This document shows, piece after piece, positions 1 to 24,833 of a stretch of 31,296 nucleotides of DNA. Positions within the stretch are counted from its first letter, which is position 1; each line of letters begins with the position of its first letter. The stretch lies in the IMG/VR virus record IMGVR_UViG_2681813268_000004. One strand, written 5' to 3'. The translations under genes were made by a program, and so were the position numbers. The DNA is from a virus (taxonomy: Duplodnaviria > Heunggongvirae > Uroviricota > Caudoviricetes). The notes beneath the pieces were generated by a model. That model did no database searches. It was not told where the DNA came from and was given only the letters and a program-made list of their open reading frames with translations.

Positions 1-677
1 CGGAAATCAAACCCTCGCCCGGCGGCGACACGCCATCGGGGCCGTCTGAAGATGCATCCGTACGCACAATCTCCCTGTTGCCGACAGCCGGAGATGCTGC
101 TGCGCAGGGCTGGAGCATTAAGAATGGCGGAATTCAGTTGTCAGATGGTGTATTTAAGATCACCAAGCAGAGCAATAAAGCCTGGTCCCTGACGCGCCCG
201 GTGGATGACGCAGTCTCCCTGCTGACACGGGGTGGCAGACTGAGCTGTAAGTTTCGACTGTCAGGCGCACTGACCAACAACCAGTTCGGTCTGGGAATTT
301 ATCTGTATACCGATGTAGCGTTACCTGACGTCGTGGCGATGACCGGGACTGGTAACCCGTTCCTGATGTCGTTCTTCACCCAGACCACAGACGGCAAACT
401 GAATCTGATGCATCACAAGAAAGCAGGAAACACAAAGTTGGGCGAGTTCGGGAATTACAGTAACGACTGGCTGACGCTGGAGCTGGTGTTCACCGCCGGC
501 AGTGCCACGGTTACTCCGAAACTGAATGGAGTGGCTGGCCCGGCATTCCAGGTCATAAAAGACAGTCTGACAGTGGGACTAAATGCACTGACGCTGACGG
601 ATATTACCAAAAATGCAACGTATGGCGTTGAGATAGAAAGTCTGGTGCTGGAGATAAATGCACCGGCATCATCATAA
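1..677 (+). CDS. Late-region protein, C-terminal portion; the reading frame is open to the window start, so the 5' end lies upstream. Function unknown.
   Basis: Frame containing the listed ORF 78..677 has no stop back to position 1; the listed M at 78 is a TTG. Stop at 675-677. Sits immediately upstream of the holin. Confidence 0.5.
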
Positions 678-761
678 AAAGTGAGCCAGTCAAATGGAAG
701 GTATCGTTAAACTCACCGGTAGTGTCAGTGGGTCGTCTGAGACGCCTGCATGAGTTATCAG

Positions 762-795
762 AGCCATCAGTACTTAACTGGTGGCTTTTTTATTG
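762..795 (+). terminator. Putative intrinsic terminator or hairpin between the upstream ORF and the holin
   Basis: Stem agccatcag / ctggtggct (one G-U pair) with 7-nt loop, followed by TTTTTTATT. Seen directly; the copy at about 1238-1272 has one extra T. Confidence 0.35.
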
Positions 796-826
796 TTGTC
801 AGCTTCCGGATAACGGGAGACGGGGT

Positions 827-1042
827 ATGTACCAGATGGAAAAAATCACAACAGGTGTGTCATACACCACGTCAGCGGTGGGAACGGGCTACTGGTTCCT
901 GCAGTTGCTGGACAGGGTTTCCCCGTCTCAGTGGGCGGCAATAGGCGTGCTGGGGAGTCTGCTGTTTGGGCTGCTGACATATCTGACTAACCTGTATTTC
1001 AAAATCAGAGAGGACCGTCGTAAGGCTGCACGGGGAGAGTAA
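827..1042 (+). CDS. S: Class II pinholin-type holin, 71 aa, dual-start MYQM (copy 1)
   Basis: ATG at 827 and second in-frame Met at codon 4; two hydrophobic segments and charged C-terminus ([13 protein letters not shown]); position directly upstream of the endolysin. Recalled similarity to phage 21 / Stx-phage S holins. Confidence 0.75.
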
Positions 1043-1061
1043 TTCAATGACTCAAAACTAT

Positions 1062-1062
1062 N
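1062..1062. other. Single-N junction; downstream sequence re-starts at the equivalent of position 587
   Basis: n at 1062; 1063.. matches 587.. with a few mismatches. Confidence 0.9.
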
Positions 1063-1537
1063 GCTGACGCTGACGGATATTACCAAAAATGCAGCGTATG
1101 GCGTTGAGATAGAAAGTCTGGTGCTGGAGATAAATGCACCGGCATCATCATAAAAAGTGAGCCAGCCAAATGGAAGGTATCGTTAAACTCACCGGTAGTG
1201 TCAGTGGGTCGTCTGAGATGCCTGCATGAGTTATCAGAGCCATCAGTACTTAACTGGTGGCTTTTTTTATTGTTGTCAGCTTCCGGATAACGGGAGACGG
1301 GGTATGTACCAGATGGAAAAAATCACAACAGGTGTGTCATACACCACGTCAGCGGTGGGAACGGGCTACTGGTTCCTGCAGTTGCTGGACAGGGTTTCCC
1401 CGTCTCAGTGGGCGGCAATAGGCGTGCTGGGGAGTCTGCTGTTTGGGCTGCTGACATATCTGACTAACCTGTATTTCAAAATCAGAGAGGACCGTCGTAA
1501 GGCTGCACGGGGAGAGTAATTCAATGACTCAAAACTA
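1063..1537 (+). repeat. Near-identical direct repeat of 587..1061 (3' end of upstream ORF, intergenic region, holin)
   Basis: Direct comparison: same sequence with SNPs (gcaacg/gcagcg, cagtca/cagcca, gagacg/gagatg) and a 6T versus 7T homopolymer. Confidence 0.85.
1304..1519 (+). CDS. S: Class II pinholin-type holin, 71 aa (copy 2, translation identical to copy 1)
   Basis: ATG at 1304; same [10 protein letters not shown]... protein as 827..1042. Confidence 0.75.
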
Positions 1538-1874
1538 TGAACTGATTGTGAAAGGGATCCGCAATTTTGAGAATAAAGTTACGGTAACTTTAGCGTTACG
1601 GGACAAAAAACGCTTTGACGGTGAAATTTTTGACCTGGACATCTCGCTGGACCGTGTTGAAGGTGCCGCGCTGGAGTTTTATGAGGCAGCAGCCAGAAGG
1701 AGCATCAGACAGGTCTTCCTGGATGTTGCTGCCGGGTTATGTGAAGGGGATGAGCAGTCGCCGGAAAAGCGCCCCGTAATTTTAGAGGCGCAGAATGTGT
1801 GGATAACCTACAAAGGAAAGCTACCAGGAAGAATTACTGGTTCTCTGAAGACTCCTCCGGAATCACAACCTTAA
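1524..1874 (+). CDS. Hypothetical protein encoded between holin and endolysin (116 aa)
   Basis: ATG 4 nt after the holin stop; 116-codon ORF; its first 14 nt are also present at 1048-1061 before the N junction. No motif recognised. Confidence 0.55.
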   Translation: MTQNYELIVKGIRNFENKVTVTLALRDKKRFDGEIFDLDISLDRVEGAALEFYEAAARRSIRQVFLDVAAGLCEGDEQSPEKRPVILEAQNVWITYKGKLPGRITGSLKTPPESQP

Positions 1875-1937
1875 GTCACTGACCAGAACAGATAAACCTG
1901 TCCGTGGGCAGAAACCGATAAATCCTGATAAATATCC

Positions 1938-2471
1938 ATGAACGCAAAAATCAGATACGGCCTGTCGGCTGCCGTTCTGGCACTGATTGCCGTCGGTGCG
2001 CCCGCGCCTGATATTCTCGACCAGTTTCTGGATGAAAAAGAGGGTAACCACACTACGGCATACCGCGATGGTTCCGGCATCTGGACCATCTGTCGGGGGG
2101 CCACGATGGTGGATGGAAAACCCGTTTTTCCCGGTATGAAACTGTCGAAGGAAAAATGCGACCAGGTCAACGCCATTGAGCGTGATAAGGCGCTGGCATG
2201 GGTGGAGAAAAACATCAAAGTGCCATTGAGCGAACCCCAGAAAGCGGGGATCGCGTCATTCTGTCCGTACAACATTGGTCCCGGTAAGTGTTTCCCGTCG
2301 ACGTTTTATAAACGAATTAATGCAGGTGATCGCAGGGGAGCGTGTGAGGCGATTCGCTGGTGGATTAAGGACGGTGGCAGAGACTGCCGTATTCGTTCAA
2401 ACAACTGCTACGGTCAGGTATCCCGTCGTGACCAGGAGAGTGCGCTGGCGTGCTGGGGTATCGACAGATAA
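1938..2471 (+). CDS. R: Endolysin, T4-lysozyme-like with N-terminal signal-anchor-release (SAR) hydrophobic segment
   Basis: 177 aa; N-terminal YGLSAAVLALIAVGAPAP hydrophobic stretch followed by a lysozyme-like core (E..D..T arrangement); recalled resemblance to phage 21 / Stx-phage R. Confidence 0.85.
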   Translation: MNAKIRYGLSAAVLALIAVGAPAPDILDQFLDEKEGNHTTAYRDGSGIWTICRGATMVDGKPVFPGMKLSKEKCDQVNAIERDKALAWVEKNIKVPLSEPQKAGIASFCPYNIGPGKCFPSTFYKRINAGDRRGACEAIRWWIKDGGRDCRIRSNNCYGQVSRRDQESALACWGIDR

Positions 2472-2563
2472 GCAGAATATTTTGCTGAAAAATAAGGCAT
2501 GGCCACGCGGGCGGATAACACGAAATCCTGCGAACTGGCGAAACGTAAGTGAATAAAAGTAAA

Positions 2564-2600
2564 AACCCCGTTTGTTGGCAGCAAGCGGGGTTTTGTTTTT
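2564..2600 (+). terminator. Putative rho-independent terminator downstream of R
   Basis: aaaaccccg ... cggggtttt inverted repeat followed by a T-rich run (ttttgttttt). Confidence 0.4.
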
Positions 2601-2665
2601 ATGGCAGTAAGCTATGGGAGGCTGCCTTGATTGATTTTAGCAAACTGATTAGGGAGTTGCGACTC

Positions 2666-2761
2666 ATGATTAGTCAATTACCAAACTGGAAATTTTTGCT
2701 GGTCTGGAGCATCCCTTTTTTATGGGTAGTATCCCAGTTAATTGTGGCAATTAAGGGGTAG
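2666..2761 (+). CDS. Small hydrophobic peptide (31 aa), hypothetical
   Basis: agggag 8 nt upstream of ATG 2666; translation MISQLPNWKFLLVWSIPFLWVVSQLIVAIKG; stop TAG 2759-2761. Confidence 0.3.
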   Translation: MISQLPNWKFLLVWSIPFLWVVSQLIVAIKG

Positions 2762-2763
2762 CT

Positions 2764-2895
2764 ATGTCAGACAAACTCATAACGCCGGCAAAGGTCCTGT
2801 GTGTGATTGTCGGTATTTCATTTTCACTAATGCTGGTTGCTCTTTTTCTGTCCCTCGCCTGGGTGATGTTGTCTTCGTCGGGGCTGCTGGGGTGA
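2764..2895 (+). CDS. Small hydrophobic peptide (43 aa), hypothetical; its hydrophobic segment resembles the Rz N-terminal segment
   Basis: ATG 2764, 2 nt after the previous stop, preceded by aagggg; translation MSDKLITPAKVLCVIVGISFSLMLVALFLSLAWVMLSSSGLLG. Confidence 0.3.
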   Translation: MSDKLITPAKVLCVIVGISFSLMLVALFLSLAWVMLSSSGLLG

Positions 2896-3014
2896 CAGTG
2901 ACTGATGACATCAGCAGAGCGCTGGCTTTTGCTATTAAGTGGGTGGCTGTTGGTATTGCTGTGTCTCCGATGCTATATGGGCTGGCAAAACTGGTCATTG
3001 CGCTGAAATCGTGA
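2892..3014 (+). CDS. Small hydrophobic peptide (about 38-40 aa), hypothetical; start uncertain (GTG at 2892 or 2898)
   Basis: GTG overlaps the previous TGA stop; translation ..TDDISRALAFAIKWVAVGIAVSPMLYGLAKLVIALKS; no in-frame ATG. Confidence 0.25.
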   Translation: MTVTDDISRALAFAIKWVAVGIAVSPMLYGLAKLVIALKS

Positions 3015-3025
3015 ACTTTAAAAAG

Positions 3026-3112
3026 ATGAGTGCTGAACTTATTCGGGCAATGGCATTTGCCATTCGTATTGTGGCCATTGCTGTTCTGGTCTGGGCAATC
3101 CGTTGGTGGTGA
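3026..3112 (+). CDS. Small hydrophobic peptide (28 aa), hypothetical
   Basis: ATG 3026; translation [28 protein letters not shown]; stop TGA 3110-3112, 1 nt before the Rz ATG. Confidence 0.25.
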
Positions 3113-3113
3113 T

Positions 3114-3581
3114 ATGAACCGTGTTCTGTGTGTGGTGATTATTGTCATGCTGGTGGCCTGTGGTGCGCTTAGTCTGGGGCTGAATCATTACCGTGATAAC
3201 GCCATTACCTACAAAGCCCAGCGCGACAAAAATGTCAGAGAACTGAAGCTGGCGAACGCGGCAATTACTGACATGCAGATGCGTCAGCGTGATGTTGCTG
3301 CGCTCGATGCAAAATACTCGAGGGAATTAGCCGATGCGAGAGCTGAAAATGAAACTCTTCGCGCTGACGTTGCCGCTGGTCGTAAGCGCCTGCGTATCAA
3401 CGCCACCTGTCCAGGTCCCGTGCGTGAAGCCACCGGCACCGCCCGCGTGGATAATGCAACCGGCCCCCGACTGGCAGACACCGCTGAACGGGATTATTTC
3501 ACCCTCAGAGAGCGGCTGATGACGATGCACAAGCAACTGGAAGGGGCGCAGGAATATATCCGCACTCAGTGCCTGAAATAA
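3114..3581 (+). CDS. Rz: Inner-membrane spanin Rz (i-spanin), 155 aa
   Basis: From ATG 3114 the protein ([40 protein letters not shown]...) aligns by recall with lambda Rz along its length. The listed ORF start at 3030 is a GTG extension. Confidence 0.85.
3334..3519 (+). CDS. Rz1: Outer-membrane lipoprotein spanin Rz1 (o-spanin), embedded in the +1 frame of Rz
   Basis: Lipobox LVVSAC and proline-rich [30 protein letters not shown], matching lambda Rz1 by recall; wholly inside Rz in another frame. Start may be the second ATG at 3349. Confidence 0.75.
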
Positions 3582-3834
3582 GTTTTGCTGATGCGCGGTA
3601 TTGTCGCCGTATCCCCGCATTAACAGAGACCGCAGCCCGACCGGGAGACTCCTCTGCGCGAGTGTGCGGGGATAATCAAAAACGATACACACCGGGGTTT
3701 ACCGCGTTAACGGAGCGCGGCGTTGTCCCCTCATAGTCGCCAGTCCGGTGCGATGGTGGAAGAAACCGGACTACATTGAAAATGATAACCATTATCATTT
3801 TTGCGGGTCCTTTCCGGCGATCCGGGCCGTTACG

Positions 3835-3846
3835 GGGCGGCGACCT
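3835..3846. other. cos: cosN cohesive-end site (lambda-type 12-nt overhang GGGCGGCGACCT)
   Basis: Exact 12-mer gggcggcgacct followed by cgcgggttttcgctatttatgaaaattt, as in lambda cos by recall; about 170 bp upstream of Nu1. Confidence 0.8.
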
Positions 3847-4015
3847 CGCGGGTTTTCGCTATTTATGAAAATTTTTAGGGAAAAATCAGATCCGTTCTTC
3901 TTCTTTTTAACTGATTGATTATCAATAGAATTTTAAAAATATAAAAGGATCTGACAAAGGCTGTTTTTGTTAGAAAACGCCATTTTCAGATCCTTTCTGG
4001 TTCCCGGGGGAGTGT

Positions 4016-4564
4016 ATGAACGTCAATAAGAAAAAACTGGCCGATATTTTTGGCGTTGATGTCAGGACCATCACCGCCTGGCAGAGTCAGGGGTTACCAC
4101 TAGTTTCTGGTGGAGGGAAAGGGACTGAATCAGTTTTTGATACAACTGCTGCCATTCAGTGGTATGCGCAGAGGGAAGCTGATATTGAAAACGAAAAACT
4201 CCGTAAAGAGATCGAGGATTTGAGGGCTGCCAGCGAATCAGACCTTCAGCCCGGCACCATTGATTACGAACGTTACCGACTGACGAAGGCACAGGCCGAT
4301 GCACAGGAGCTGAAAAATGCTCGTGAGGAAGGCCTTGTCCTCGAGACGGAGTTATTTACCTACATCTTTCAGCGAGTGGCACAGAATATATCAGGGATCC
4401 TTGTCCGTGTCCCTCAGACACTGCAGCGTAAATACCCTGATATATCACCCGTACATCTTGATGCTGTGAAAACTGAAATCGCGAAAGCATCCGATGTGGC
4501 TTCTGAAGCCGGTGAGAATGTGCGCAGGTGGATTGATGATTTCAGACGAACTGAGGGCGGCTAA
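4016..4564 (+). CDS. nu1: Terminase small subunit
   Basis: 182 aa; [36 protein letters not shown].. aligns by recall with lambda Nu1 (N-terminal winged helix-turn-helix). Confidence 0.9.
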
Positions 4565-6464
4565 TTCTGCAGGAGCGATAGCAACCGGCCTCCTTGCGCT
4601 AAAAATTCCTGTCCCTCTGACGACAGTTCAGTGGGCAGATCGACATTATTACCTTCCGAAAGAGTCATCTTACACCCCGGGGCGGTGGGAAACACTGCCG
4701 TTTCAGGTTGCCATCATGAACAGCATGGGGAATGACCGGATCCGCACTGTTAATCTGATTAAATCTGCCCGTGTTGGTTATACAAAGATGTTGCTGGGAG
4801 TGGAGGCTTATTTTATTGAGCATAAATCACGCAACAGCCTTCTTTTCCAGCCCACGGATTCTGCTGCTGAAGATTTTATGAAATCTCATGTGGAACCCAC
4901 GATCAGGGATGTGCCGGTTTTACTCGATCTTGCACCGTGGTTTGGGCGTAAACATCGTGATAATACCCTCACGCTGAAACGTTTTTCATCGGGCGTGGGC
5001 TTCTGGTGCCTGGGCGGGGCTGCCGCTAAAAACTACCGTGAAAAATCCGTGGACGTGGTCTGCTATGACGAACTTTCCTCGTTCGAACCGGATGTCGAAA
5101 AAGAGGGTTCGCCAACCCTGCTTGGGGATAAACGTATTGAGGGCTCTGTATGGCCCAAATCCATTCGCGGCTCGACGCCTAAAATCAAAGGCACCTGCCA
5201 GATCGAAAAAGCGGCCAACGAGTCGGCGCATTTCATGCGTTTTTATGTGCCCTGCCCACACTGTGGGGAGGAGCAGTATCTGAAATTTGGCGATGAATCC
5301 ACGCCTTTTGGCCTTAAATGGGAGAAGGACAGCCCCGAAAGCGTTTTCTACCTCTGTGAACATCATGGCTGCGTGATCCATCAGTCTGAGCTTGACCAGA
5401 GCAACGGGCGGTGGATCTGTGAAAACACGGGGATGTGGACCCGTGACGGTCTGACGTTTTTCAGCGCCGCGGATAATGAAATTCCGCCGCCGCGCTCCAT
5501 CACGTTCCATATCTGGACGGCGTACAGTCCGTTCACCACCTGGGTACAGATAGTCTATGACTGGCTGGATGCACTGAAAGATCCCAACGGCCTGAAAACC
5601 TTTGTGAACACCACGCTGGGCGAGACCTGGGAAGAGGCCGTGGGCGAAAAACTCGATCACCAGGTACTGATGGATAAGGTCGTGCATTACACGGCGGCGG
5701 TGCCAGCCCGGGTGGTTTATCTGACGGCGGGCATTGACTCGCAGCGAAACCGTTTTGAGATGTATGTCTGGGGATGGGCACCGGGAGAGGAAGCTTTTCT
5801 GGTGGATAAAATCATCATTATGGGCCGTCCCGATGAGGAAGAGACGCTGTTACGTGTGGATGCGGCGATCAACAAAAAATACTGCCATGCAGACGGAACC
5901 GAAATGACCATTTCCCGTGTCTGCTGGGACACCGGGGGGATCGATGGTGAAATTGTCTATCAGAGGTCAAAAAAACACGGTGTTTTCCGGGTGCTGCCGG
6001 TAAAAGGCGCATCTGTCTATGGCAAGCCGGTGATCACCATGCCGAAAACCCGCAATCAGCGGGGCGTGTATCTGTGTGAAGTGGGGACGGACACCGCAAA
6101 AGAAATTCTCTATGCCCGTATGAAAGCCGATCCCACGCCTGCGGATGAAGCCACGTCGTATGCCATCCATTTTCCTGATGATCCGGAGATTTTTTCGCAG
6201 ACAGAGGCGCAGCAACTGGTCGCGGAAGAGCTTGTGGAGAAGTGGGAAAAAGGAAAGATGCGTCTGCTGTGGGATAACAAAAAGCGGCGTAACGAAGCGC
6301 TGGACTGCCTGGTGTATGCCTATGCGGCATTACGTGTGTCCGTGCAACGCTGGCAGCTTGATCTGGCTGTACTGGCAAAATCCCGGGAAGAAGAGACGAC
6401 CCGGCCAACCCTTAAAGAACTGGCAGCGAAGCTGTCCGGAGGAGTGAATGGTTACAGTCGCTGA
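4536..6464 (+). CDS. A: Terminase large subunit (ATPase/endonuclease)
   Basis: About 642 aa from ATG 4536, overlapping the Nu1 3' end as in lambda; long colinear recalled similarity to lambda gpA (..[14 protein letters not shown].., ..[10 protein letters not shown]..). The listed start at 4494 is a non-ATG extension. Confidence 0.9.
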
Positions 6465-6654
6465 ACTGCAGGCGCTGCGTCAGGCGCGCCTTGATTTATT
6501 AACCGGTAAACGGGTGGTGTCTGTCCAGAAAGATGGTCGCAGAATTGAATATACGGCGGCTTCTCTGGATGAGCTTAACCGGGCGATCAATGATGCGGAG
6601 TCGGTACTGGGGACAACCCGACGTCGCCGTCGTCCGCTGGGAGTGAGGTTATGA
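6448..6654 (+). CDS. W: Head-tail joining protein W
   Basis: 68 aa; ..LLTGKRVVSVQKDGRRIEYTAASLDEL.. resembles lambda gpW by recall; overlaps the A stop. Confidence 0.85.
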   Translation: MVTVAELQALRQARLDLLTGKRVVSVQKDGRRIEYTAASLDELNRAINDAESVLGTTRRRRRPLGVRL

Positions 6655-8243
6655 AACGAACGCCTGTCCTGATTGATGTGAACGGCGTTCCGCTTCGTGA
6701 GAGTCTCAGCTACAACGGGGGCGGCGCAGGATTTGGCGGGCAAATGGCGGAGTGGTTGCCACCGGCGCAGAGTGCCGATGCAGCCCTGCTGCCTGCGTTG
6801 CGTCTGGGGAATGCCCGGGCAGATGATCTGGTGCGCAATAACGGGATAGCGGCTAATGCGGTGGCCCTGCATAAGGATCATATTGTCGGGCATATGTTTC
6901 TGATCAGCTACCGTCCGAACTGGCGCTGGCTGGGGATGCGGGAGACTGCGGCAAAAAGTTTTGTCGATGAGGTGGAGGCGGCCTGGTCAGAATACGCAGA
7001 AGGGATGTTTGGCGAGATCGACGTGGAAGGGAAACGCACGTTTACGGAATTTATCCGTGAAGGTGTGGGCGTTCATGCGTTTAACGGCGAAATCTTTGTG
7101 CAGCCGGTCTGGGATACGGAAACCACGCAGTTATTCCGTACGCGTTTTAAAGCCGTGAGTCCGAAACGGGTGGACACGCCAGGACGCGGTATCGGGAACC
7201 GTTTTCTGCGGGCCGGTGTGGAGGTTGATCGATATGGCCGTGCCGTTGCGTACCATATCTGTGAGGATGATTTTCCTCGCTCCGGGAGTGGACGATGGGA
7301 ACGGATCCCGCGTGAACTACCCACCGGGCGTCCGGCCATGCTGCATATTTTCGAGCCGGTGGAGGACGGGCAGACCCGTGGAGCCAATCAGTTTTACAGC
7401 GTTATGGAACGGCTGAAGATGCTGGATTCCCTGCAGGCAACACAGCTTCAGTCGGCCATAGTGAAGGCGATGTATGCAGCGACGATTGAAAGTGACCTTG
7501 ATACCGAAAAGGCCTTTGAATATATCGCCGGTGCGCCGCAGGGGCAGAAGGATAATCCGCTTATTAATATTCTGGATAAGTTCTCCACCTGGTATGACAC
7601 GAATAGCGTGACGCTGGGCGGTGTCAAAATTCCGCACCTTTTCCCCGGTGATGATCTGAAACTTCAGACCGCGCAGGATTCAGACAATGGATTTTCGGCG
7701 CTTGAACAGGCGCTGCTGCGGTATATCGCCGCCGGTCTTGGCGTTTCCTACGAACAGTTGTCCCGTGATTACTCGAAGGTCAGTTACTCAAGTGCCCGCG
7801 CATCCGCCAATGAGTCGTGGCGCTATTTTATGGGGCGGCGAAAATTTATTGCGTCCCGGCTGGCCACGCAGATGTTTTCCTGCTGGCTGGAAGAGGCACT
7901 TCTTCGGGGGATTATTCGTCCGCCACGGGCACGGTTTGATTTTTATCAGGCGCGATCAGCCTGGTCACGGGCTGAGTGGATTGGAGCCGGAAGAATGGCC
8001 ATTGACGGGCTCAAGGAGGTTCAGGAATCAGTGATGCGCATTGAGGCCGGACTGAGCACGTATGAGAAAGAGCTGGCGCTGATGGGCGAGGATTATCAGG
8101 ACATTTTCCGCCAGCAGGTCAGGGAATCTGCAGAGCGGGAAAAAGCCGGACTCTCACGTCCGGTGTGGATAGCGCAGGCGTATCAGCAGCAGATAGCGGA
8201 GAGTCGCAGGCCGGAAGAGGAGACAACACCACGTGAGACGTAA
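6651..8243 (+). CDS. B: Portal protein
   Basis: 530 aa; ATGA overlap with the W stop; position and size match lambda gpB (533 aa). Confidence 0.9.
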   Translation: MKRTPVLIDVNGVPLRESLSYNGGGAGFGGQMAEWLPPAQSADAALLPALRLGNARADDLVRNNGIAANAVALHKDHIVGHMFLISYRPNWRWLGMRETAAKSFVDEVEAAWSEYAEGMFGEIDVEGKRTFTEFIREGVGVHAFNGEIFVQPVWDTETTQLFRTRFKAVSPKRVDTPGRGIGNRFLRAGVEVDRYGRAVAYHICEDDFPRSGSGRWERIPRELPTGRPAMLHIFEPVEDGQTRGANQFYSVMERLKMLDSLQATQLQSAIVKAMYAATIESDLDTEKAFEYIAGAPQGQKDNPLINILDKFSTWYDTNSVTLGGVKIPHLFPGDDLKLQTAQDSDNGFSALEQALLRYIAAGLGVSYEQLSRDYSKVSYSSARASANESWRYFMGRRKFIASRLATQMFSCWLEEALLRGIIRPPRARFDFYQARSAWSRAEWIGAGRMAIDGLKEVQESVMRIEAGLSTYEKELALMGEDYQDIFRQQVRESAEREKAGLSRPVWIAQAYQQQIAESRRPEEETTPRET

Positions 8244-9738
8244 TCTTTCACACATTATTGCAGCAGCATTCAATGAACCGCTGCTTCTGGAGCCCGCCTA
8301 TGCGCGGGTTTTCTTTTGCGCGCTGGGGCGCGAGATGGGGGCAGCAAGTCTTTCGGTACCGCAACAGCAGGTACAGCTTGATGCTCCCGGGATGCTGGCT
8401 GAAACGGACGAGTACATGGCCGGAGGTAAACGACCGGCCCGTGTTTACCGGGTGGTGAACGGTATTGCGGTACTGCCGGTGACCGGCACGCTGGTGCACC
8501 GGCTGGGGGGGATGCGGCCATTTTCCGGAATGACTGGCTATGACGGCATTGTCGCCTGTCTTCAGCAGGCAATGGCAGATAGCCAGGTGCGGGGCATACT
8601 GCTGGACATTGACAGTCCGGGCGGGCAGGCCGCCGGCGCGTTTGACTGCGCTGACATGATTTACCGCCTCCGGCAGCAGAAGCCGGTCTGGGCACTGTGT
8701 AATGACACGGCCTGTTCTGCGGCCATGCTGCTGGCGTCGGCCTGCTCCCGACGGCTGGTTACCCAGACATCCCGTATCGGTTCCATTGGCGTGATGATGA
8801 GCCATGTCAGCTATGCCGGTCATCTGGCGCAGGCCGGTGTGGATATCACGCTGATTTACTCAGGGGCGCACAAGGTGGATGGCAATCAGTTTGAAGCGTT
8901 GCCGGCAGAGGTTCGCCAGGACATGCAGCAGCGGATTGATGCGGCGCGCCGGATGTTTGCCGAAAAAGTGGCGATGTTTACCGGTCTGTCTGTTGATGCA
9001 GTCACGGGAACAGAGGCCGCTGTTTTTGAAGGTCAGTCCGGCATTGAGGCCGGGCTGGCGGATGAATTAATCAATGCGTCGGATGCCATCAGTGTGATGG
9101 CCACGGCGCTGAACAGTAATGTCAGAGGAGGCACTATGCCGCAATTAACTGCAACGGAAGCCGCCGTGCAGGAGAACCAGCGAGTGATGGGGATCCTGAC
9201 ATGCCAGGAAGCGAAAGGACGTGAACAGCTTGCCACGATGCTGGCAGGGCAACAGGGCATGAGCGTTGAACAGGCCCGGGCGATTCTGGCCGCGGCGGCA
9301 CCGCAGCAGCCGGTGGCATCCGCGCAGAGTGAAGCCGATCGCATTATGGCGTGTGAAGAAGCGAACGGTCGTGAACAACTGGCGGCAACGCTGGCGGCGA
9401 TGCCGGAGATGACGGTGGAAAAAGCCCGCCCGATCCTGGCGGCTGCACCACTGGCGGATGCCGGGCCCTCACTTCGTGATCAGATCATGGCCCTGGATGA
9501 GGCAAAAGGGGCAGAAGCGCAGGCTGAAAAACTGGCGGCCTGCCCGGGAATGACCGTGGAGAACGCCCGGGCTGTGCTGGCTGCGGGATCAGGTAAGGCC
9601 GAACCGGTCTCTGCATCCACAACCGCCCTGTTTGAACATTTCATGGCGAATCATTCACCGGCAGCGGTGCGGGGTGGCGTGTCACAGACGTCAGCAGACG
9701 GTGATGCGGACGTGAAAATGCTCATGGCCATGCCATGA
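8233..9738 (+). CDS. C: Head maturation protease (S49/ClpP-like) with C-terminal scaffolding domain (C/Nu3 equivalent); the scaffold part has three tandem ~38-aa repeats
   Basis: 501 aa; N-terminal FNEPLLLEPAYARVFFCAL and protease core resemble lambda gpC by recall; C-terminal repeats QEAKGREQLATMLA..VEQARAILAAA / CEEANGREQLAATLA..VEKARPILAAA / LDEAKGAEAQAEKLA..VENARAVLAAG read directly. Confidence 0.85.
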   Translation: MRRNLSHIIAAAFNEPLLLEPAYARVFFCALGREMGAASLSVPQQQVQLDAPGMLAETDEYMAGGKRPARVYRVVNGIAVLPVTGTLVHRLGGMRPFSGMTGYDGIVACLQQAMADSQVRGILLDIDSPGGQAAGAFDCADMIYRLRQQKPVWALCNDTACSAAMLLASACSRRLVTQTSRIGSIGVMMSHVSYAGHLAQAGVDITLIYSGAHKVDGNQFEALPAEVRQDMQQRIDAARRMFAEKVAMFTGLSVDAVTGTEAAVFEGQSGIEAGLADELINASDAISVMATALNSNVRGGTMPQLTATEAAVQENQRVMGILTCQEAKGREQLATMLAGQQGMSVEQARAILAAAAPQQPVASAQSEADRIMACEEANGREQLAATLAAMPEMTVEKARPILAAAPLADAGPSLRDQIMALDEAKGAEAQAEKLAACPGMTVENARAVLAAGSGKAEPVSASTTALFEHFMANHSPAAVRGGVSQTSADGDADVKMLMAMP

Positions 9739-9774
9739 AGTCAGTGCTGACCATCAATATGAGGTTTTAACAAA

Positions 9775-10122
9775 ATGGTGACGAAAACCATCACTGAACA
9801 GCGTGCGGAAGTACGTATTTTTGCTGGTAATGATCCGGCTCATACCGCCACAGGCAGCAGCGGGATTTCTTCTGCAACACCGGCTCTGACGCCCCTGATG
9901 CTGGATGAAGCCACCGGGAAACTGGTGGTCTGGGATGGACAGAAAGCCGGTAGTGCGGTTGGCATACTGGTACTGCCGCTTGAAGGCACAGAGACGGTGC
10001 TGACCTATTACAAGTCGGGGACCTTTGCGACGGAGGCAATCCGCTGGCCTGACAGTGTGGATGAACACAAAAAGGCAAATGCCTTTGCCGGCACAGCCCT
10101 GAGTCACGCGGCTCTGCCATAA
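9775..10122 (+). CDS. D: Head decoration protein D
   Basis: 115 aa; ..NDPAHTATGSSG..PALTPLMLDEATGKLVVWDG..YYKSGTFA.. resembles lambda gpD by recall. Confidence 0.85.
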   Translation: MVTKTITEQRAEVRIFAGNDPAHTATGSSGISSATPALTPLMLDEATGKLVVWDGQKAGSAVGILVLPLEGTETVLTYYKSGTFATEAIRWPDSVDEHKKANAFAGTALSHAALP

Positions 10123-10130
10123 CACGTTAT

Positions 10131-10150
10131 CAGGCCACCATGGTGGCCTG
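10131..10150. promoter_or_regulatory. 20-bp perfect palindrome (caggccaccatggtggcctg) in the D-E intergenic region; possible RNA hairpin
   Basis: Perfect inverted repeat read directly, 30 nt upstream of the E start. Confidence 0.5.
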
Positions 10151-10179
10151 ACTGATTTCTGAATGAAAGGAACTGATTT

Positions 10180-11208
10180 ATGGGATTGTTTACGACCCGC
10201 CAGTTACTCGGTTATACCGAACAAAAAGTGAAATTCCGTGCGCTGTTTCTGGAGCTGTTTTTCCGCCGTACGGTGAATTTCCACACCGAAGAGGTGATGC
10301 TGGACAAAATTACCGGAAAAACGCCGGTGGCGGCCTATGTCTCCCCGATCGTTGAAGGAAAAGTGCTTCGCCATCGCGGTGGTGAAACCCGCGTGTTACG
10401 TCCGGGCTACGTCAAGCCGAAACACGAATTTAATTACCAGCAGGCGGTTGAGCGCCTTCCTGGTGAAGATCCGGCTCAGCTGAACGACCCGGCCTACCGT
10501 CGTCTGCGTATCATTACCGATAACCTCAAACAGGAAGAGCACGCCATTGTCCAGGTGGAAGAAATGCAGGCGGTGAATGCCGTGCTGTATGGCAAATACA
10601 CCATGGAAGGGGATCAGTTTGATACTGTCGAGGTGGATTTCGGGCGCTCTGAAGGAAATAACATTGAGCAGGCTGACGGTAAAAAATGGTCTGAGCAGGA
10701 CCGTGATACGTTTGATCCGACGCATGATATTGACCTCTACTGCGATCAGGCCAGCGGCCTTGTGAATATCGCCATTATGGACGGTACGGTCTGGCGTCTG
10801 CTGAATGGCTTTAAGCTGTTCCGCGAAAAACTGGATACCCGTCGCGGCTCAAATTCACAACTCGAAACGGCAGTGAAAGATCTGGGCGCAGTGGTGTCCT
10901 TCAAGGGGTATTACGGCGATCTGGCCATTGTGGTGGCGAAAACGTCTTATGTGGCAGAGGACGGTACCGAAAAACGTTATCTGCCGGAGGGCATGCTGGT
11001 GCTGGGGAATACGGCGGCAGAGGGGATTCGTTGCTATGGTGCCATTAAGGATGCACAGGCGTTGTCTGAAGGAGTGGTGGCTTCTTCCCGTTACCCGAAA
11101 CACTGGCTGACCGTGGGCGATCCGTCCTGTGAATTCACCATGACGCAGTCCGCTCCGCTGATGGTGCTGCCGGATCCGGATGAGTTTGTGGTGGTACAGG
11201 TGAAATAA
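10180..11208 (+). CDS. E: Major capsid protein
   Basis: 342 aa; colinear recalled similarity to lambda gpE (341 aa), e.g. ..YVSPIV.G.V....GG......PGYVKPKHE.. and the C-terminal ..TMTQSAPLMVLPDPDEFVVVQV. Confidence 0.9.
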   Translation: MGLFTTRQLLGYTEQKVKFRALFLELFFRRTVNFHTEEVMLDKITGKTPVAAYVSPIVEGKVLRHRGGETRVLRPGYVKPKHEFNYQQAVERLPGEDPAQLNDPAYRRLRIITDNLKQEEHAIVQVEEMQAVNAVLYGKYTMEGDQFDTVEVDFGRSEGNNIEQADGKKWSEQDRDTFDPTHDIDLYCDQASGLVNIAIMDGTVWRLLNGFKLFREKLDTRRGSNSQLETAVKDLGAVVSFKGYYGDLAIVVAKTSYVAEDGTEKRYLPEGMLVLGNTAAEGIRCYGAIKDAQALSEGVVASSRYPKHWLTVGDPSCEFTMTQSAPLMVLPDPDEFVVVQVK

Positions 11209-11216
11209 TCCGTGAG

Positions 11217-11245
11217 CGGGGGCGAAATGCCCCCGTGTCTTTTTT
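11217..11245 (+). terminator. Hairpin plus T-run immediately after E (possible attenuator or terminator)
   Basis: cgggggc gaaat gcccccg followed by tgtctttttt; AGGAGG and the FI ATG follow. Confidence 0.45.
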
Positions 11246-11259
11246 CACAGGAGGCTGAG

Positions 11260-11643
11260 ATGGCAACAAAAGAAGAAAATCTGAATCGTCTTCGTCAACT
11301 GGCTGGCCTGCTGGGGCGCGAGGCGGATATGTCGGGGAGTGCTGCGGATATTGCTCAACGTGTGTCTGAGTGGGAAGAGGAGCTTGCTGTTTCCCCGGAG
11401 GGCATTATGCACTCTGATGAGAGCGGGGCTGATCAAAATCACACAGACGATGGTGAGCAGTTGAACAACACGGATGCTCCGGATGATGTTAAAGCCGTCC
11501 GGGTACGGAAGTGCCTGCAAGTAATGGGGTATTGCCCGGAGACAGGTCGTCCCGTTGAGCTGGCGTTACGGGGTATGCGTGTTCTGGTGCCATCATCACT
11601 GGCAACGGCCATGATACAGCACGGAACGGCTGAATATGCGTGA
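11260..11643 (+). CDS. FI: DNA packaging / head assembly protein FI
   Basis: ATG 11260 preceded by aggagg; 127 aa; position between E and FII; acidic central region. Identity based mainly on synteny. Confidence 0.7.
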   Translation: MATKEENLNRLRQLAGLLGREADMSGSAADIAQRVSEWEEELAVSPEGIMHSDESGADQNHTDDGEQLNNTDAPDDVKAVRVRKCLQVMGYCPETGRPVELALRGMRVLVPSSLATAMIQHGTAEYA

Positions 11644-11989
11644 TTTTCAGAATGCCTTTGATGCTGCCCTCGCCGGGGTAGACAGTACGATCGTTGAAGT
11701 GATGGGGCTCTGTGCGCAGTTCACCTCGGGGGCACAGTGTGGCAGCGAAGTTCAGGGGGTTTTTGACGATCCGGAGTCGCTGGGGTTTGCCGGTGGCGGG
11801 GTCCGTATTGAAGGAAGCAGCCCGTCATTATTTGTGCGGACGGATACGGTTCGTGCCGTGCGGCGTGGTGACACGCTGACCATTAATGGTGAGACATTCT
11901 GGGTGGATCGTGTTTCTCCGGATGACGGGGGCAGCTGTTATCTCTGGCTCAACCGTGGGCAACCACCCGCAGTTAACCGGCGACGATAA
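11636..11989 (+). CDS. FII: Head-tail connector protein FII
   Basis: 117 aa; ..GVFDDPE......G.GVR.EGSSPSLFVRTD.VR..RRGDTLTI....FWVDRVSPDDGGSC.LWL.RG.PPAVNRRR matches lambda FII by recall. Confidence 0.85.
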   Translation: MRDFQNAFDAALAGVDSTIVEVMGLCAQFTSGAQCGSEVQGVFDDPESLGFAGGGVRIEGSSPSLFVRTDTVRAVRRGDTLTINGETFWVDRVSPDDGGSCYLWLNRGQPPAVNRRR

Positions 11990-12003
11990 ACGCAGGGTGA
12001 ATT

Positions 12004-12579
12004 ATGGCGATAAAAGGGCTTGATCAGGCGATTGACAATCTGAGCCGGGTTCGTAAAAACGCCATTCCGGCTGCTTCTGCAATGACCATTAACCGCGTGG
12101 CCACAACGGCGATTAATCAGTCTTCGTCACAGGTTGCCCGGGAAACCAGGGTGAGACGGAAACTGGTAAAGGAACGGTCCAGACTGAAACGGGCGACGGT
12201 CAGAAATCCGAATGCCAGAATTATCGTTAACCGCGGTGATCTCCCTGTGATTAAGCTGGGGATCAGAATGCTGGGGCGTCGTCCGAACAGCATACTCAAA
12301 GCCGGTCAGCATCGTTATCAGCGGGCATTTATCCAGCGATTAAATAATGGGCGCTGGCATGTTATGCAACGTCTTCCCCAGGCCAGATATGAGGAGGGCA
12401 ATGACGACAAGGGAAGGAAAAAGCGTAATCGCCTTCCCATTCAGGTGGTGAAAATCCCGATGGCGGCCCCACTGAAACAGGCATTTGATGAGAATGTTGA
12501 CCGTATCCGGCGTGAACGCCTGCCTAAAGAACTGGCATACGCGCTGAAACAACAACTGAGGATTGCGATAAAACGATGA
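12004..12579 (+). CDS. Z: Tail completion protein Z
   Basis: 191 aa; MAIKGL.QA..NLSR......P.A.AM.INRVA...I.QS.SQVARET.VRRKLVKER.RLKRATV.NP.ARI.VNRGDLPVIKLG.. matches lambda gpZ by recall. Confidence 0.85.
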   Translation: MAIKGLDQAIDNLSRVRKNAIPAASAMTINRVATTAINQSSSQVARETRVRRKLVKERSRLKRATVRNPNARIIVNRGDLPVIKLGIRMLGRRPNSILKAGQHRYQRAFIQRLNNGRWHVMQRLPQARYEEGNDDKGRKKRNRLPIQVVKIPMAAPLKQAFDENVDRIRRERLPKELAYALKQQLRIAIKR

Positions 12580-12971
12580 AACACACTGACATTCGTGCCG
12601 CAGTGCTGGATGCACTCGAGCAGCATGAACACGGGGCGACGCTGTTTGATGGTCGCCCCGTTGTTTTTGACGAAGAGGATTTTCCTGCGATCGCGGTTTA
12701 TCTGACGGATGCAGAGTATACCGGTGAAGAGCTGGATGCAGATACCTGGCGGGCCACGCTGCATATTGAGGTGTTTTTACCGGCACAGGTACCGGATTCA
12801 GAGCTTGATCAGTGGATGGAAAGCCGGATTTACCCGGCGATGACCGCGATCCCGGCACTGGCAGGACTGATTACCACGATGGTTACGCAGGGCTATGAGT
12901 ATCGTCGTGATGACGATATGGCGTTATGGAGTTCTGCAGATCTGACTTATTCCATTACATACGAGATGTGA
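12576..12971 (+). CDS. U: Tail terminator protein U
   Basis: 131 aa; ATGA overlap with Z; [73 protein letters not shown] matches lambda gpU by recall. Confidence 0.9.
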
Positions 12972-12978
12972 GGACGAT

Positions 12979-13731
12979 ATGGCAACACCAAATCCCCTTG
13001 AGCCGGTAAAAGGTGCCGGCACCACTCTGTGGGTTTACAACGGCAAGGGTGATGCTTATGCAAACCCGTTGTCAGACGATGACTGGCAGCGACTGGCTAA
13101 GGTGAAGGATCTGACGCCGGGCGAGATGACGGCAGAATCCTACGATGATAACTACCTGGATGATGAAGACGCGGACTGGACCGCGACCGGGCAGGGGCAG
13201 AAATCTGCAGGTGATACCAGTTTTACGCTGGCCTGGAAACCGGGAGAGGAAGGCCAGAAAGGGCTTATAGGCTGGTTTGAAAGCGGCGATGTCCGGGCCT
13301 ATAAAATCCGTTTTCCGAATGGCACGGTGGATGTGTTTCGTGGCTGGGTCAGCAGTATCGGTAAGGCCGTGACGGCGAAAGAAGTGATCACCCGCACGGT
13401 GAAAGTCACTAACGTGGGTAAACCTTCTGTAGCGGAAGAACGCAGCAAAATTACGCCGGTCAGTGCGATTAAGGTGACGCCGACATCCGGTACGGTGGCA
13501 AAAGGGAAAACAACCACCCTGACGGTTTCTTTTGAGCCGGAAAGTGCAACCGACAAGACGTTCAGAGCGGTTTCCGCCGATCCGTCGAAAGCCACCATTA
13601 GTGTGAAAGATATGACAATTACGGTAAACGGCGTGGCGACAGGTAAGGTGCAGATCCCTGTGGTGAGCGGAAATGGTCAGTTCGCCGCAGTGGCTGAAGT
13701 CACCGTTACTGAAGCGGGCGCTGCAGGGTAA
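12979..13731 (+). CDS. V: Major tail tube protein V, with C-terminal Ig-like domain
   Basis: 250 aa; ..[69 protein letters not shown].. matches lambda gpV by recall. Confidence 0.9.
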
Positions 13732-13744
13732 ACGGAGGTAATAC

Positions 13745-14176
13745 ATGTTTCTGAAAACAGAACAATTTGAATATAACGGTGTGTCTGTCACGCTTTCCGA
13801 ATTGTCTGCGCTGCAGCGTATCGAGCATCTTGCCCTCCTGAAACGGCGTGCAGAACAGGCAGAATCCAGCGGCAACCTGCAGGTAAGCGTGGAAGATCTC
13901 GTCAGAACCGGCGCGTTTCTGGTGGCGATGTCCCTGTGGCATAACCATCCACAGAAAACGCAGTCACCGTCAATGAATGAGGCCGTGATGAAGATAGAGC
14001 AGGAAGTGCTCACCACCTGGCCTGCCGATGCCATTGCCCGGGCGGAAGACGTGGTGTTGTGCCTGTCCGGGATGATCGAAGCTGTTCGTCCGGATACTGA
14101 TATTACTGAAGTGGCGAAAAATAACACGCTGACTGATGATGATTTTTCTGCGGGAAAGTCTTCGACGGCGAGCTGA
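13745..14176 (+). CDS. G: Tail assembly chaperone G
   Basis: 143 aa; MFLKTE.FE.NGV.VTLSELSALQRIEHLAL.KR.AEQAES.. matches lambda gpG by recall; slippery site near the 3' end. Confidence 0.85.
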   Translation: MFLKTEQFEYNGVSVTLSELSALQRIEHLALLKRRAEQAESSGNLQVSVEDLVRTGAFLVAMSLWHNHPQKTQSPSMNEAVMKIEQEVLTTWPADAIARAEDVVLCLSGMIEAVRPDTDITEVAKNNTLTDDDFSAGKSSTAS

Positions 14177-14616
14177 ACTTTGCCCTCAGACTGGCGCGTG
14201 AGATGGGGAGACCCGACTGGCGCGCCATGCTTGCCGGGATGACATCCACCGAATATGCCGACTGGCACCGTTTTTACCGCACGCATTATTTTCAGGATAC
14301 CCAGCTGGATATGCATTTTTCCGGGCTGACGTACGCTGTACTCAGCCTGTTTTTTTGCGATCCGGATATGCATCCCTCTGATTTCAGTCTGCTTGTCCCC
14401 CGGCATGAGGAAGAGCAGGTGGAGAGGCCGGATGAGGACAAAATGCTGATGCAGAAAGCGGCAGGACTTGCCGGAGGCGTCCGGTTCGGTGGGGACGGAG
14501 GGCGCGATATTTTATCGTCTGCGGATGTGGCGGATGTCATGGTGGATGAAGCCGCATTAATGATGGCTTCAGCGGGGATTCCGGGAGGTGTGAGATATGT
14601 CCCAGCCGGTTGGTGA
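13745..14616 (+). CDS. T: G-T fusion tail assembly protein made by -1 frameshift at 14152-14158
   Basis: Frame arithmetic: G frame is coordinate mod 3 = 2, T frame is mod 3 = 1; T ends at 14616, overlapping the H start at 14597. Confidence 0.7.
14152..14158 (+). promoter_or_regulatory. Programmed -1 ribosomal frameshift slippery heptamer G GGA AAG (G to G-T)
   Basis: gggaaag sits in the G zero frame as G_GGA_AAG; the downstream T ORF (14203..14616 as listed) is in the -1 frame relative to G. Confidence 0.75.
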
Positions 14617-17600
14617 TCTTGTTATTGACCTGAGTCTGGATGCTGTCCGTTTCGATGAGCAGATGAGCCGGGTAAGGCGTCATTTTTCAGGTCTGGATAC
14701 CGACGCCAGAAAAACCGCCAGTGCTGTTGAACAGGGCCTGAGCCGCCAGGCGCTGGCTGCACAAAAAGCCGGGATTTCCGTCGGGCAGTATAAAGCGGCC
14801 ATGCGAACCCTGCCCGCACAGTTTACGGATATCGCCACGCAGCTTGCCGGTGGTCAGAATCCCTGGCTGATCCTGCTGCAACAGGGCGGTCAGGTGAAGG
14901 ACTCCTTCGGCGGGATGATCCCCATGTTCAGGGGGCTTGCCGGTGCGATCACCCTGCCGATGGTCGGGGTCACCTCGCTGGCGGTGGCGACAGGTGCGCT
15001 GGTGTACGCCTGGTACCAGGGAGATTCCACGCTTTCAGCGTTTAATAAAACGCTGGTCCTTTCCGGCAATCAGGCGGGACTGACGGCAGATCGTATGCTG
15101 GTCCTGTCCAGAGCCGGGCAGGCGGCAGGGCTGACGTTTAACCAGACCAGCGAGTCACTCAGCGCACTGGTTAAGGCGGGGGTAAGCGGTGAGGCTCAGA
15201 TTGCGTCCATCAGCCAGAGTGTGGCGCGTTTCTCCTATGCATCCGGCGTGGAGGTGGACAAGGTCGCTGAAGCCTTCGGGAAGCTGACCACAGACCCGAC
15301 GTCGGGGCTGACGGCGATGGCACGCCAGTTCCATAACGTGACGGCGGAGCAGATTGCGTATGTTGCTCAGTTGCAGCGTTCCGGCGATGAAGCCGGGGCA
15401 TTGCAGGCGGCGAACGAGGCCGCAACGAAAGGGTTTGATGACCAGACCCGCCGCCTGAAAGAGAACATGGGCACGCTGGAGACCTGGGCAGACAGGACTG
15501 CACGTGCATTCAAATCCATGTGGGATGCGGTGCTGGATATTGGTCGTCCTGATACCGCGCAGGAGATGCTGATTAAGGCAGAGGCTGCGTTTAAGAAAGC
15601 AGACGACATCTGGAATCTGCGCAAGGATGATTATTTTGTTAACGATGAAGCGCGGGCGCGTTACTGGGATGATCGTGAAAAGGCCCGTCTTGCGCTTGAA
15701 GCCGCCCGAAAGAAGGCTGAGCAGCAGACTCAACAGGACAAAAATGCGCAGCAGCAGAGCGATACCGAAGCGTCACGGCTGAAATATACCGAAGAGGCGC
15801 AGAAGGCTTACGAACGGCTGCAGACGCCGCTGGAGAAATATACCGCCCGTCAGGAAGAACTGAACAAGGCACTGAAAGACGGGAAAATCCTGCAGGCGGA
15901 TTACAACACGCTGATGGCGGCGGCGAAAAAGGATTATGAAGCGACGCTGAAAAAGCCGAAACAGTCCGGCGTGAAGGTGTCTGCGGGCGATCGTCAGGAA
16001 GACAGTGCTCATGCNTGCATCCGGCGTGGAGGTGGACAAGGTCGCTGAAGCCTTCGGGAAGCTGACCACAGACCCGACGTCGGGGCTGACGGCGATGGCA
16101 CGCCAGTTCCATAACGTGACGGCGGAGCAGATTGCGTATGTTGCTCAGTTGCAGCGTTCCGGCGATGAAGCCGGGGCATTGCAGGCGGCGAACGAGGCCG
16201 CAACGAAAGGGTTTGATGACCAGACCCGCCGCCTGAAAGAGAACATGGGCACGCTGGAGACCTGGGCAGACAGGACTGCACGTGCATTCAAATCCATGTG
16301 GGATGCGGTGCTGGATATTGGTCGTCCTGATACCGCGCAGGAGATGCTGATTAAGGCAGAGGCTGCGTTTAAGAAAGCAGACGACATCTGGAATCTGCGC
16401 AAGGATGATTATTTCGTTAACGATGAAGCACGGGCGCGTTACTGGGATGATCGTGAAAAAAAACGCCTGGAGCGGGATGCAGCCCAAAAGAGGGTAGATC
16501 AACAGCGTCAACAGGACAAAAATGCGCAGCAGCAGAGCGATACCGAAGCGTCACGGCTGAAATATACCGAAGAGGCGCAGAAGGCTTACGAACGGCTGCA
16601 GACGCCGCTGGAGAAATATACCGCCCGTCAGGAAGAACTGAACAAGGCACTGAAAGACGGAAAAATCCTGCAGGCAGATTACAACACGCTGATGGCGGCG
16701 GCGAAAAAGGATTATGAAGCGACGCTGAAAAAGCCGAAACAGTCCGGCGTGAAGGTGTCTGCGGGCGATCGTCAGGAAGACAGTGCTCATGCTGCCCTGC
16801 TGACGCTTCAGGCAGAACTCCGGACGCTGGAGAAGCATGCCGGAGCGAATGAGAAAATCAGCCAGCAGCGCCGGGATTTGTGGAAGGCAGAAAGTCAGTT
16901 CGCGGTACTGGAGGAGGCGGCACAACGTCGCCAGCTGTCCGCACAGGAGAAATCCCTGCTGGCGCATAAAGACGAGACGCTGGAGTACAAACGCCAGCTG
17001 GCTGCACTTGGTGACAAGGTTACGTATCAGGAGCACCTGAATGCGCTGGCGCAGCAGGCGGATAAATTCGCACAGCAGCAACGGGCAAAACGGGCAGCCA
17101 TTGATGCGAAAAACCGGGGGCTGACTGACCGGCAGGCAGCGCGGGAAGCCACGGAACAGCGCCTGAAGGAACAGTATGGCGATAATCCTCTGGCGCTGAA
17201 TAACGTCATGTCAGAGCAGAAAAAGACCTGGGCGGCTGAAGACCAGCTTCGCGGGAGCTGGATGGCAGGCCTGAAGTCCGGCTGGAGTGAGTGGGAAGAG
17301 AGCGCCACGGACAGTATGTCACAGGTTAAAAGTGCAGCCACGCAGACCTTTGATGGTATTGCACAGAATATGGCGGCGATGCTGACCGGCAGTGANGCCC
17401 TGCTGACGCTTCAGGCAGAACTCCGGACGCTGGAGAAGCATGCCGGAGCGAATGAGAAAATCAGCCAGCAGCGCCGGGATTTGTGGAAGGCAGAAAGTCA
17501 GTTCGCGGTACTGGAGGAGGCGGCACAACGTCGCCAGCTGTCCGCACAGGAGAAATCCCTGCTGGCGCATAAAGATGAGACGCTGGAGTACAAACGCCAG

Positions 17601-18539: not shown

Positions 18540-18865
18540 AAACCTTCCGCTGGAAAGTGAAACCCGGGATGGATGTGACATCGGCTCCTTCCGTCAGGGA
18601 GGTGCGCTTTGGTGATGGCTATTCCCAGCGTGCGCCTGCCGGGCTGAACGCTGACCTGAAAACGTACAGCGTGACGCTGTCTGTCTCCCGTGAGGAGGCC
18701 ACGGCGCTGGAGTCGTTTCTGGAAGAGCACGGGGGCTGGAAAGCCTTTCTGTGGACGCCGCCTTATGAGTGGCGGCAGATAAAGGTGACCTGCGCAAAAT
18801 GGTCGTCGCGGGTCAGTATGTTGCGTGTTGAGTTCAGCGCAGAGTTTAAACAGGTGGTGAACTGA
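18536..18865 (+). CDS. M: Minor tail protein M
   Basis: 109 aa; MKTFRWKVKPGMDV...PSVR.VRFGDGYSQRAPAGLNA.LKTYSVTLSV.REEAT.LESFLEEHGGWK.FLWTPPYEWRQIKVTCAKWSSRVSML matches lambda gpM by recall. Confidence 0.9.
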   Translation: MKTFRWKVKPGMDVTSAPSVREVRFGDGYSQRAPAGLNADLKTYSVTLSVSREEATALESFLEEHGGWKAFLWTPPYEWRQIKVTCAKWSSRVSMLRVEFSAEFKQVVN

Positions 18866-19563: not shown

Positions 19564-19574
19564 NNNNNNNNNNN
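19564..19574. other. 11-N gap or junction
   Basis: n run read directly; sequence resumes inside M. Confidence 0.95.
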
Positions 19575-19723
19575 TTCTGGAAGAGCACGGGGGCTGGAAA
19601 GCCTTTCTGTGGACGCCGCCTTATGAGTGGCGGCAGATAAAGGTGACCTGCGCAAAATGGTCGTCGCGGGTCAGTATGCTGCGTGTTGAGTTCAGCGCAG
19701 AGTTTGAACAGGTGGTGAACTGA
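19575..19723 (+). CDS. M: M, 3' fragment (5' end cut by the N junction)
   Basis: Matches 18716..18865 of the complete M with one change (K to E near the C-terminus). Confidence 0.6.
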
Positions 19724-20421: not shown

Positions 20422-20426
20422 ATCCC

Positions 20427-22371: not shown

Positions 22372-22382
22372 NNNNNNNNNNN
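22372..22382. other. 11-N gap or junction
   Basis: n run read directly; sequence resumes at the same internal M position as after the first gap. Confidence 0.95.
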
Positions 22383-23229: not shown

Positions 23230-23234
23230 ATCCC

Positions 23235-24832: not shown

Positions 24833-24833
24833 N

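Follow-up and report, generated by a model that had tools for sequence, protein, structure and literature searches.

The lysis cassette of phage 21 is composed of the S21 pinholin and the SAR endolysin R21, and is the closest described system to the locus considered here, which likewise has a holin of Pfam family PF04971, then DUF1327/YdfR, and then a PF00959 lysozyme. The late region of Stx-type and other lambdoid E. coli prophages, which runs esterase, holin, YdfR, lysozyme and Rz, has a gene order identical to that of our locus. Apart from an apparently artificial second copy of the holin, and the N-terminus of the holin itself, nothing of note distinguishes the locus from cassettes of the phage 21 type.

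Tandem duplications occur in phage and bacterial genomes. The locus resembles a genuine tandem duplication or amplification in that the copies are head-to-tail and the boundary of the unit lies inside flanking genes, but it differs in having an N for a junction, in that its copies are distinct natural alleles, and in that the arrangement does not recur in related genomes. False duplication flanking a scaffold gap has been described for genome assemblies (Ko et al., 2022, Genome Biol 23:205; PMC9516828). The locus is similar to the heterotype false duplication of that study, in which divergent versions of one locus stand side by side with a gap between them, and also in the apparent gain of a gene that results. 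There are two differences. The versions seen here are alleles of a multi-copy prophage module and not diploid haplotypes, and the locus was judged by comparison of sequences, whereas the criteria used by Ko et al. were read depth and read pairs.

The window (the whole stretch of viral DNA that was analysed, 31,296 nucleotides, IMG/VR record IMGVR_UViG_2681813268_000004) begins with the following features.

1..1061, plus strand: segment S1, running from the 3' part of the esterase gene through the intergenic region and the holin to the 15th nucleotide of ydfR
3..677, plus strand: 3' part of a SASA-family carbohydrate esterase gene (NanS-p type), with a DUF6645 C-terminal domain (Pfam PF20350, E = 9.6e-20)
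587..1061, plus strand: copy 1 of the repeat, the last 475 nt of S1 (from alignment)
760..788, plus strand: terminator-like hairpin, copy 1, upstream of the holin, with the T6 run as its T tract
827..1042, plus strand: holin gene on S1, 216 nt, 71 aa, class II, phage 21 S type (Pfam PF04971)
1047..1061, plus strand: start of ydfR/DUF1327, truncated at the end of S1, 15 nt (MTQNY), the same as 1524-1538
1062..1062, no strand: single N, the probably artificial join of S1 and S2 (from piece mapping, junction probes and synthetic control)
1063..1538, plus strand: copy 2 of the repeat, the first 476 nt of S2 (from alignment and piece mapping)
1236..1264, plus strand: terminator-like hairpin, copy 2, the counterpart of 760-788, with a T7 tract
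1304..1519, plus strand: holin gene on S2, 216 nt, in its native context with ydfR directly after (from the ORF and PF04971)
1524..1874, plus strand: YdfR/DUF1327 gene (Pfam PF07041, 145 bits)
1938..2471, plus strand: lysozyme R (endolysin; Pfam PF00959, 86.7 bits), with a hydrophobic, Gly/Ala-rich N-terminus in the translation

The N at 1062 is flanked by a direct repeat of about 475 nt (587-1061 and 1063-1538), with the two copies in the same orientation and about 99% identical, which is far beyond chance. The initial annotation had reported this repeat, and it is present. The end given there for copy 1 was right, but copy 2 extends to 1538 rather than 1537, owing to an extra T. The repeat is in exact register, such that 588-1061 corresponds to 1064-1538, and a global alignment of the copies gives five differences: 587A/1063G, 618A/1094G, 690T/1166C, 743C/1219T, and a run of six T in copy 1 (780-785) that is seven T in copy 2. 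The three SNPs and the T6/T7 difference listed earlier are therefore all found inside the repeat, but there is a fourth substitution, at the first base. The final 276 nt of the copies are 100% identical (family D16 of the repeat listing, where the repeat as a whole is made up of families D16 and D17), and because both holin ORFs lie within this stretch their 71-aa products are identical, as had been claimed. The esterase gene contributes its last 91 nt to the start of copy 2 (1063-1153). Copy 1 stops exactly at the N, where the earlier description had placed its end, having run 15 nt and not 14 into ydfR/DUF1327 (ATGACTCAAAACTAT, 1047-1061, equivalent to 1524-1538). As written in the window the junction of S1 and S2 is TTCAATGACTCAAAACTAT-(N)-GCTGACGCTGACGG, and reading through the N gives a ydfR stub of six codons followed by a stop.

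The esterase gene runs off the start of the window and has its stop codon at 675-677; in matching genomes the whole upstream gene carries the RefSeq label 'SASA family carbohydrate esterase'. The hairpin between esterase and holin has a 12-bp stem, and tract lengths of T6 and T7 are both found among natural alleles. The holin matches PF04971 ('Bacteriophage P21 holin S') over profile positions 1-63 of 64, with E = 9e-33 and 112.5 bits against a cut-off of 26. The gene order is esterase, class II holin, YdfR, lysozyme, lysis protein (Rz) and terminase, which is the same as in complete RefSeq-annotated E. coli prophages and Stx-converting phages. The holin thus sits in a lysis cassette, with the PF00959 lysozyme nearby and an Rz-like 'lysis protein' annotated downstream in the matching RefSeq genomes. 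The underlying biology is that of a normal and very common lysis cassette of the phage 21 type, with holin and lysozyme expressed from the late transcript. From its family membership the holin would be expected to act as a pinholin, forming small heptameric channels that depolarize the membrane and release the SAR endolysin.

The lysozyme translation contains what we take to be the E-8-D-5-T motif. The holin starts MYQMEK (827-838 and 1304-1315), and its Met1 and Met4 resemble what is presumably the dual start of phage 21 S, with products of 71 aa and 68 aa. Its N-terminus, MYQM, is without the lysine that we take to be present at position 2 of S21 and to distinguish the antiholin form.

The N at 1062 is one of eight runs of N in the window, at 1062, 16015, 17396, 19564-19574, 22372-22382, 24833, 26656 and 28757, which together comprise 28 N characters and are of two kinds, 1 N and 11 N. 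At 8/8 runs the 25-mer that precedes the N is found again downstream and the one that follows it is found again upstream, in agreement with the suggestion in the initial annotation that the other N junctions carry the same signature. The window was cut at the Ns, and the nine resulting pieces were mapped to the complete prophage of E. coli AF20 (locus L003, NZ_OZ547052.1), with the following positions in L003.

S1: 1495-2556
S2 (window 1063-16014): 2081-17725
S3 (1,380 nt): 16949-18328
S4: 17727-19893, 100% identical
S5: 19047-22260
S6: 19047-21883
S7: 20108-22317
S8: 20404-22503, 99.95% identical
S9: 20147-23073

The joins that follow the one at 1062 are, in window coordinates and with no strand:

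16015: N join of S2 and S3, inside the tape-measure gene; overlap of 777 nt (15238-16014 equivalent to 16016-16792) with 23 differences
17396: N join of S3 and S4; overlap of 602 nt
19564..19574: 11-N join of S4 and S5; overlap of 847 nt
22372..22382: 11-N join of S5 and S6, which start at the same reference position
24833: N join of S6 and S7, alternative alleles of tail genes
26656: N join of S7 and S8 (from 25-mer recurrence and piece mapping)
28757: N join of S8 and S9 (from 25-mer recurrence and piece mapping)

On the AF20 prophage each piece begins upstream of the end of the piece before it, and hence all the joins are negative gaps. The identity of the pieces to this prophage ranges from 85% to 100%. 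The first four overlaps, of 476, 777, 602 and 847 bp, carry 5, 23, 20 and 23 differences respectively, which implies that where pieces overlap they represent one sequence in different alleles. The AF20 prophage has one holin, located between esterase and ydfR.

From 19575 to 31296 the window consists of pieces S5-S9, which are five alternative alleles in series of a stretch covering tail genes L, K/C40 peptidase, I and the start of J. In this final 12 kb or so, alternative alleles are stacked one after another, and the window gives no contiguous genome map there. Elsewhere on the AF20 reference, S2 ends at 17725 and S4 starts at 17727, while S3 spans both and has a T at the intervening position (window 16793); the N between the ends of S2 and S4 may stand for a single variant base. 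Single Ns in the related IMG/VR contigs L059, L075 and L078 were considered as further cases of the overlap signature, and were rejected as ordinary ambiguous bases. This check covered those three contigs; L088, L089 and L090 also have single Ns.

The holin junction was then sought in other sequences. A 401-nt probe across the N at 1062 gave only two-piece matches in complete E. coli genomes, in permuted order and covering 476 bp together. The half that follows the N lies upstream of the half that precedes it within this 476-bp span, which is the arrangement of a single copy. An 81-nt junction probe (1022-1102), used with an E-value limit of 1e-20 such that half matches were excluded, gave no match in 5,426 complete E. 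coli genomes and none in 50,697 phage records. The native holin-to-ydfR 81-mer (1499-1579) occurs at 2,704 places in 2,041 complete E. coli genomes. In a synthetic control for the 81-nt probe, a true duplication was found with E of about 1e-31 to 1e-33, and a single copy gave half matches at 4e-11. The control separates the two cases, and a true duplication would therefore have been detected. The exact junction pattern, allowing 0-4 unknown bases, was absent from IMG/VR, from GTDB representatives (one genome each for 185,579 species) and from JGI metagenome contigs.

The repeat unit is present once in all 89 of the 89 related IMG/VR loci retrieved. Loci with more than one BLAST HSP to the unit (L041, L056, L078 and L083) have split alignments over a diverged middle, and are not duplications. 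A 61-mer private to S1 was found in 6 IMG/VR contigs, and was absent from JGI metagenomes. Neither these contigs nor the IMG/VR contigs that share a 53-mer from 2763-2815 include one identical to the window.

Each copy matches sequence that is found elsewhere in single copy. Copy 1 (587-1061) is identical at 475/475 positions to a single-copy locus of E. coli 14EC047 (L093 6587-7061), and the remainder of S1 matches that genome at 99.66% identity; S1 aligns as one contiguous piece on complete E. coli genomes, with up to 99.8% identity. All five differences fall within the first 200 nt of copy 2, a segment that occurs as a single copy, at 100% identity, in many complete genomes, and the holin region common to both copies is also 100% identical in many complete genomes. 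Both haplotypes are found among the IMG/VR loci as single-copy alleles. In FDAARGOS_1059, 602687 and O111:H2 12A, S1 and the beginning of S2 align to the same locus, which has one holin, at 99.3-99.5% identity and with an overlap of 474 bp.

The ends of the repeat coincide with variant sites. S2 starts on an A/G site, and S1 stops one base before an A/G site (A in 14EC047, G in S2), which is the sole relevant difference past the end of S1. Judged from these alignments, ends at allele-distinguishing sites would be expected of pieces cut where alleles diverge, unlike the breakpoint of a duplication. A mosaic boundary just after the holin, common to many prophages, was considered as the cause of the S1 end and rejected, because the downstream sequence is unchanged in 28/30 loci with the same holin 3' end.

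E. coli genomes carry the esterase/holin module in multiple copies, at a median of 2 places and a maximum of 15-16, and the larger late region is found at up to 21 places per genome. Near-identical paralogous prophages of one genome, or several strains in a sample, could therefore easily supply competing alleles. Multi-copy modules of this type are the setting in which assemblers fragment and mis-chain contigs.

The prophage of 14EC047 that gives the best match to S1 (NZ_CP024155.1 2209088-2222148) is decayed. It has an IS66-family element upstream, an IS3 transposase that splits the small terminase gene, and a frameshift in the large terminase gene, and its Rz region (74-76% identity) bears no relation to the one in the window.

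We consider that the second holin copy is very probably an assembly artefact (with a probability of roughly 0.96), in which overlapping pieces of one lambda-like E. coli prophage locus were left unmerged with an N between them, and that the phage has one holin. An artefact of assembly or concatenation was also the reading preferred in the initial annotation, and it is well supported: the nine pieces overlap on the reference, the junction is missing from the independent assemblies searched while the native junction is present, and both copies are known single-copy alleles. Moreover, the N lies exactly between the copies, both copies map to one place in independent complete genomes, and the same signature is seen at all the other gaps. 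In the proposed mechanism, S1 (1-1061) and S2 (1063-16014) would cover one stretch, comprising the esterase end, the intergenic terminator, the holin and 15 nt of ydfR, and would represent slightly different alleles of it, most likely from paralogous lambdoid prophages of one genome or from co-occurring strains. Because of their allele differences (four substitutions and T6/T7) the pieces would not have been merged, and would have been written in series with a single N as placeholder. A plain de Bruijn graph assembler would have collapsed the stretch common to both copies, since 276 identical nt is longer than any usual k-mer. Which program made the join, and whether the alleles come from one genome or two strains, are matters that we infer; the exact procedure could be negative-gap scaffolding, reference-guided ordering or linearization of a variant graph.

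It is possible, if somewhat unlikely, that the join was made not as a negative gap by a scaffolder but by concatenation, either deliberate or within a pipeline, of separate sequences that were ordered on a reference and pasted together with N separators. The inputs could be amplicons, contigs from several strains, or paths through a variation or pangenome graph. The duplication would still be artificial, and tentatively the copies would then derive from different samples or strains and not from one genome. The serial arrangement of S5-S9 is consistent with this, as are the positions of piece boundaries at variant sites, the two kinds of separator, and the single-base spacing on the reference between the end of S2 and the start of S4 with S3 spanning it. 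However, the sequence does not distinguish such a concatenation from scaffolded contigs of paralogous prophages in one genome, in which these modules, at up to 15-21 copies, could account for five alleles.

A real tandem duplication of the 476-bp unit (esterase 3' end, terminator, holin and ydfR start), giving two holins and with the N as an uncalled base, is highly improbable. The copies are indeed adjacent and oriented alike, and each has an intact holin ORF together with its upstream region, but the N, the one uncalled base in the region, falls exactly at the junction, in place of contiguous sequence, and the seven other N runs of the window behave likewise. The copies are distinct at five sites, and each copy matches a different known single-copy allele. 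A recent duplication would be expected to have identical copies, and an old one should appear in relatives. The junction was found in none of the E. coli genomes, phage records, IMG/VR, GTDB representatives or JGI metagenomes, using a probe validated by the control, and the alternative of a duplicated holin gene raised in the initial annotation therefore gains no support. Absence from other genomes is compatible with a private and recent duplication in this one sample, but we would expect a unique junction to assemble easily rather than give an N, and a join of the same type would destroy the tape-measure gene. There is accordingly only a very slight chance that the source phage carries a private tandem duplication, of recent to intermediate age, of the pinholin and upstream terminator region, with the N being coincidental; in that case the two doses of holin would be expected to advance the timing of lysis. 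Terminal redundancy or a concatemer junction was rejected as a cause, the lambda-type cos at 3836-3847 being about 2.8 kb from the N at 1062.

The effect of a literal reading is clearest in the tape-measure gene, which in the AF20 reference is one ORF of 2,562 nt. The repeat at the 16015 join has a period of 778 nt, a number not divisible by 3, so that the join taken literally produces a frameshift, and the gene, over which pieces S2, S3 and S4 overlap, is split into ORFs 14597-16048 and 16005-18539. The literal window also contains minor tail gene L three times and an I-like ORF five times. A phage built in this way is implausible.

It is concluded that the holin duplication is not a real feature, and because what underlies it is a textbook lysis cassette of the lambdoid kind, the finding is of no biological importance. 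It does present a hazard for annotation, in which a second holin gene, a tape-measure gene in two parts, and the tail genes L, K, I and the start of J in three to five copies would be called, none of this being real. Before any analysis of gene content or synteny, the window needs to be collapsed at the N joins or split into its nine pieces.

Two other features of the window were noted. At 3836-3847, just upstream of the small terminase gene (4016-4564), the sequence is GGGCGGCGACCT, then CGCGGGTTTTCGCTATTTATGAAAATTTT, which we take to be the cohesive-end (cos) sequence of phage lambda. Its position upstream of the small terminase points to a cos-packaging lambda-like phage, with the lysis cassette at the right end of the virion genome. 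Between lysozyme and Rz there is a stretch of about 560 bp (2549-3112) in which three small ORFs overlap one another, their predicted products being very hydrophobic peptides. This stretch is absent or replaced in the AF20 prophage (S2 positions 1645-2036 are unaligned), and in RefSeq matches it has no annotation beyond 'hypothetical protein'. An exact 53-mer from it (2763-2815) had no match in GTDB representatives, and was found in 83 IMG/VR contigs.
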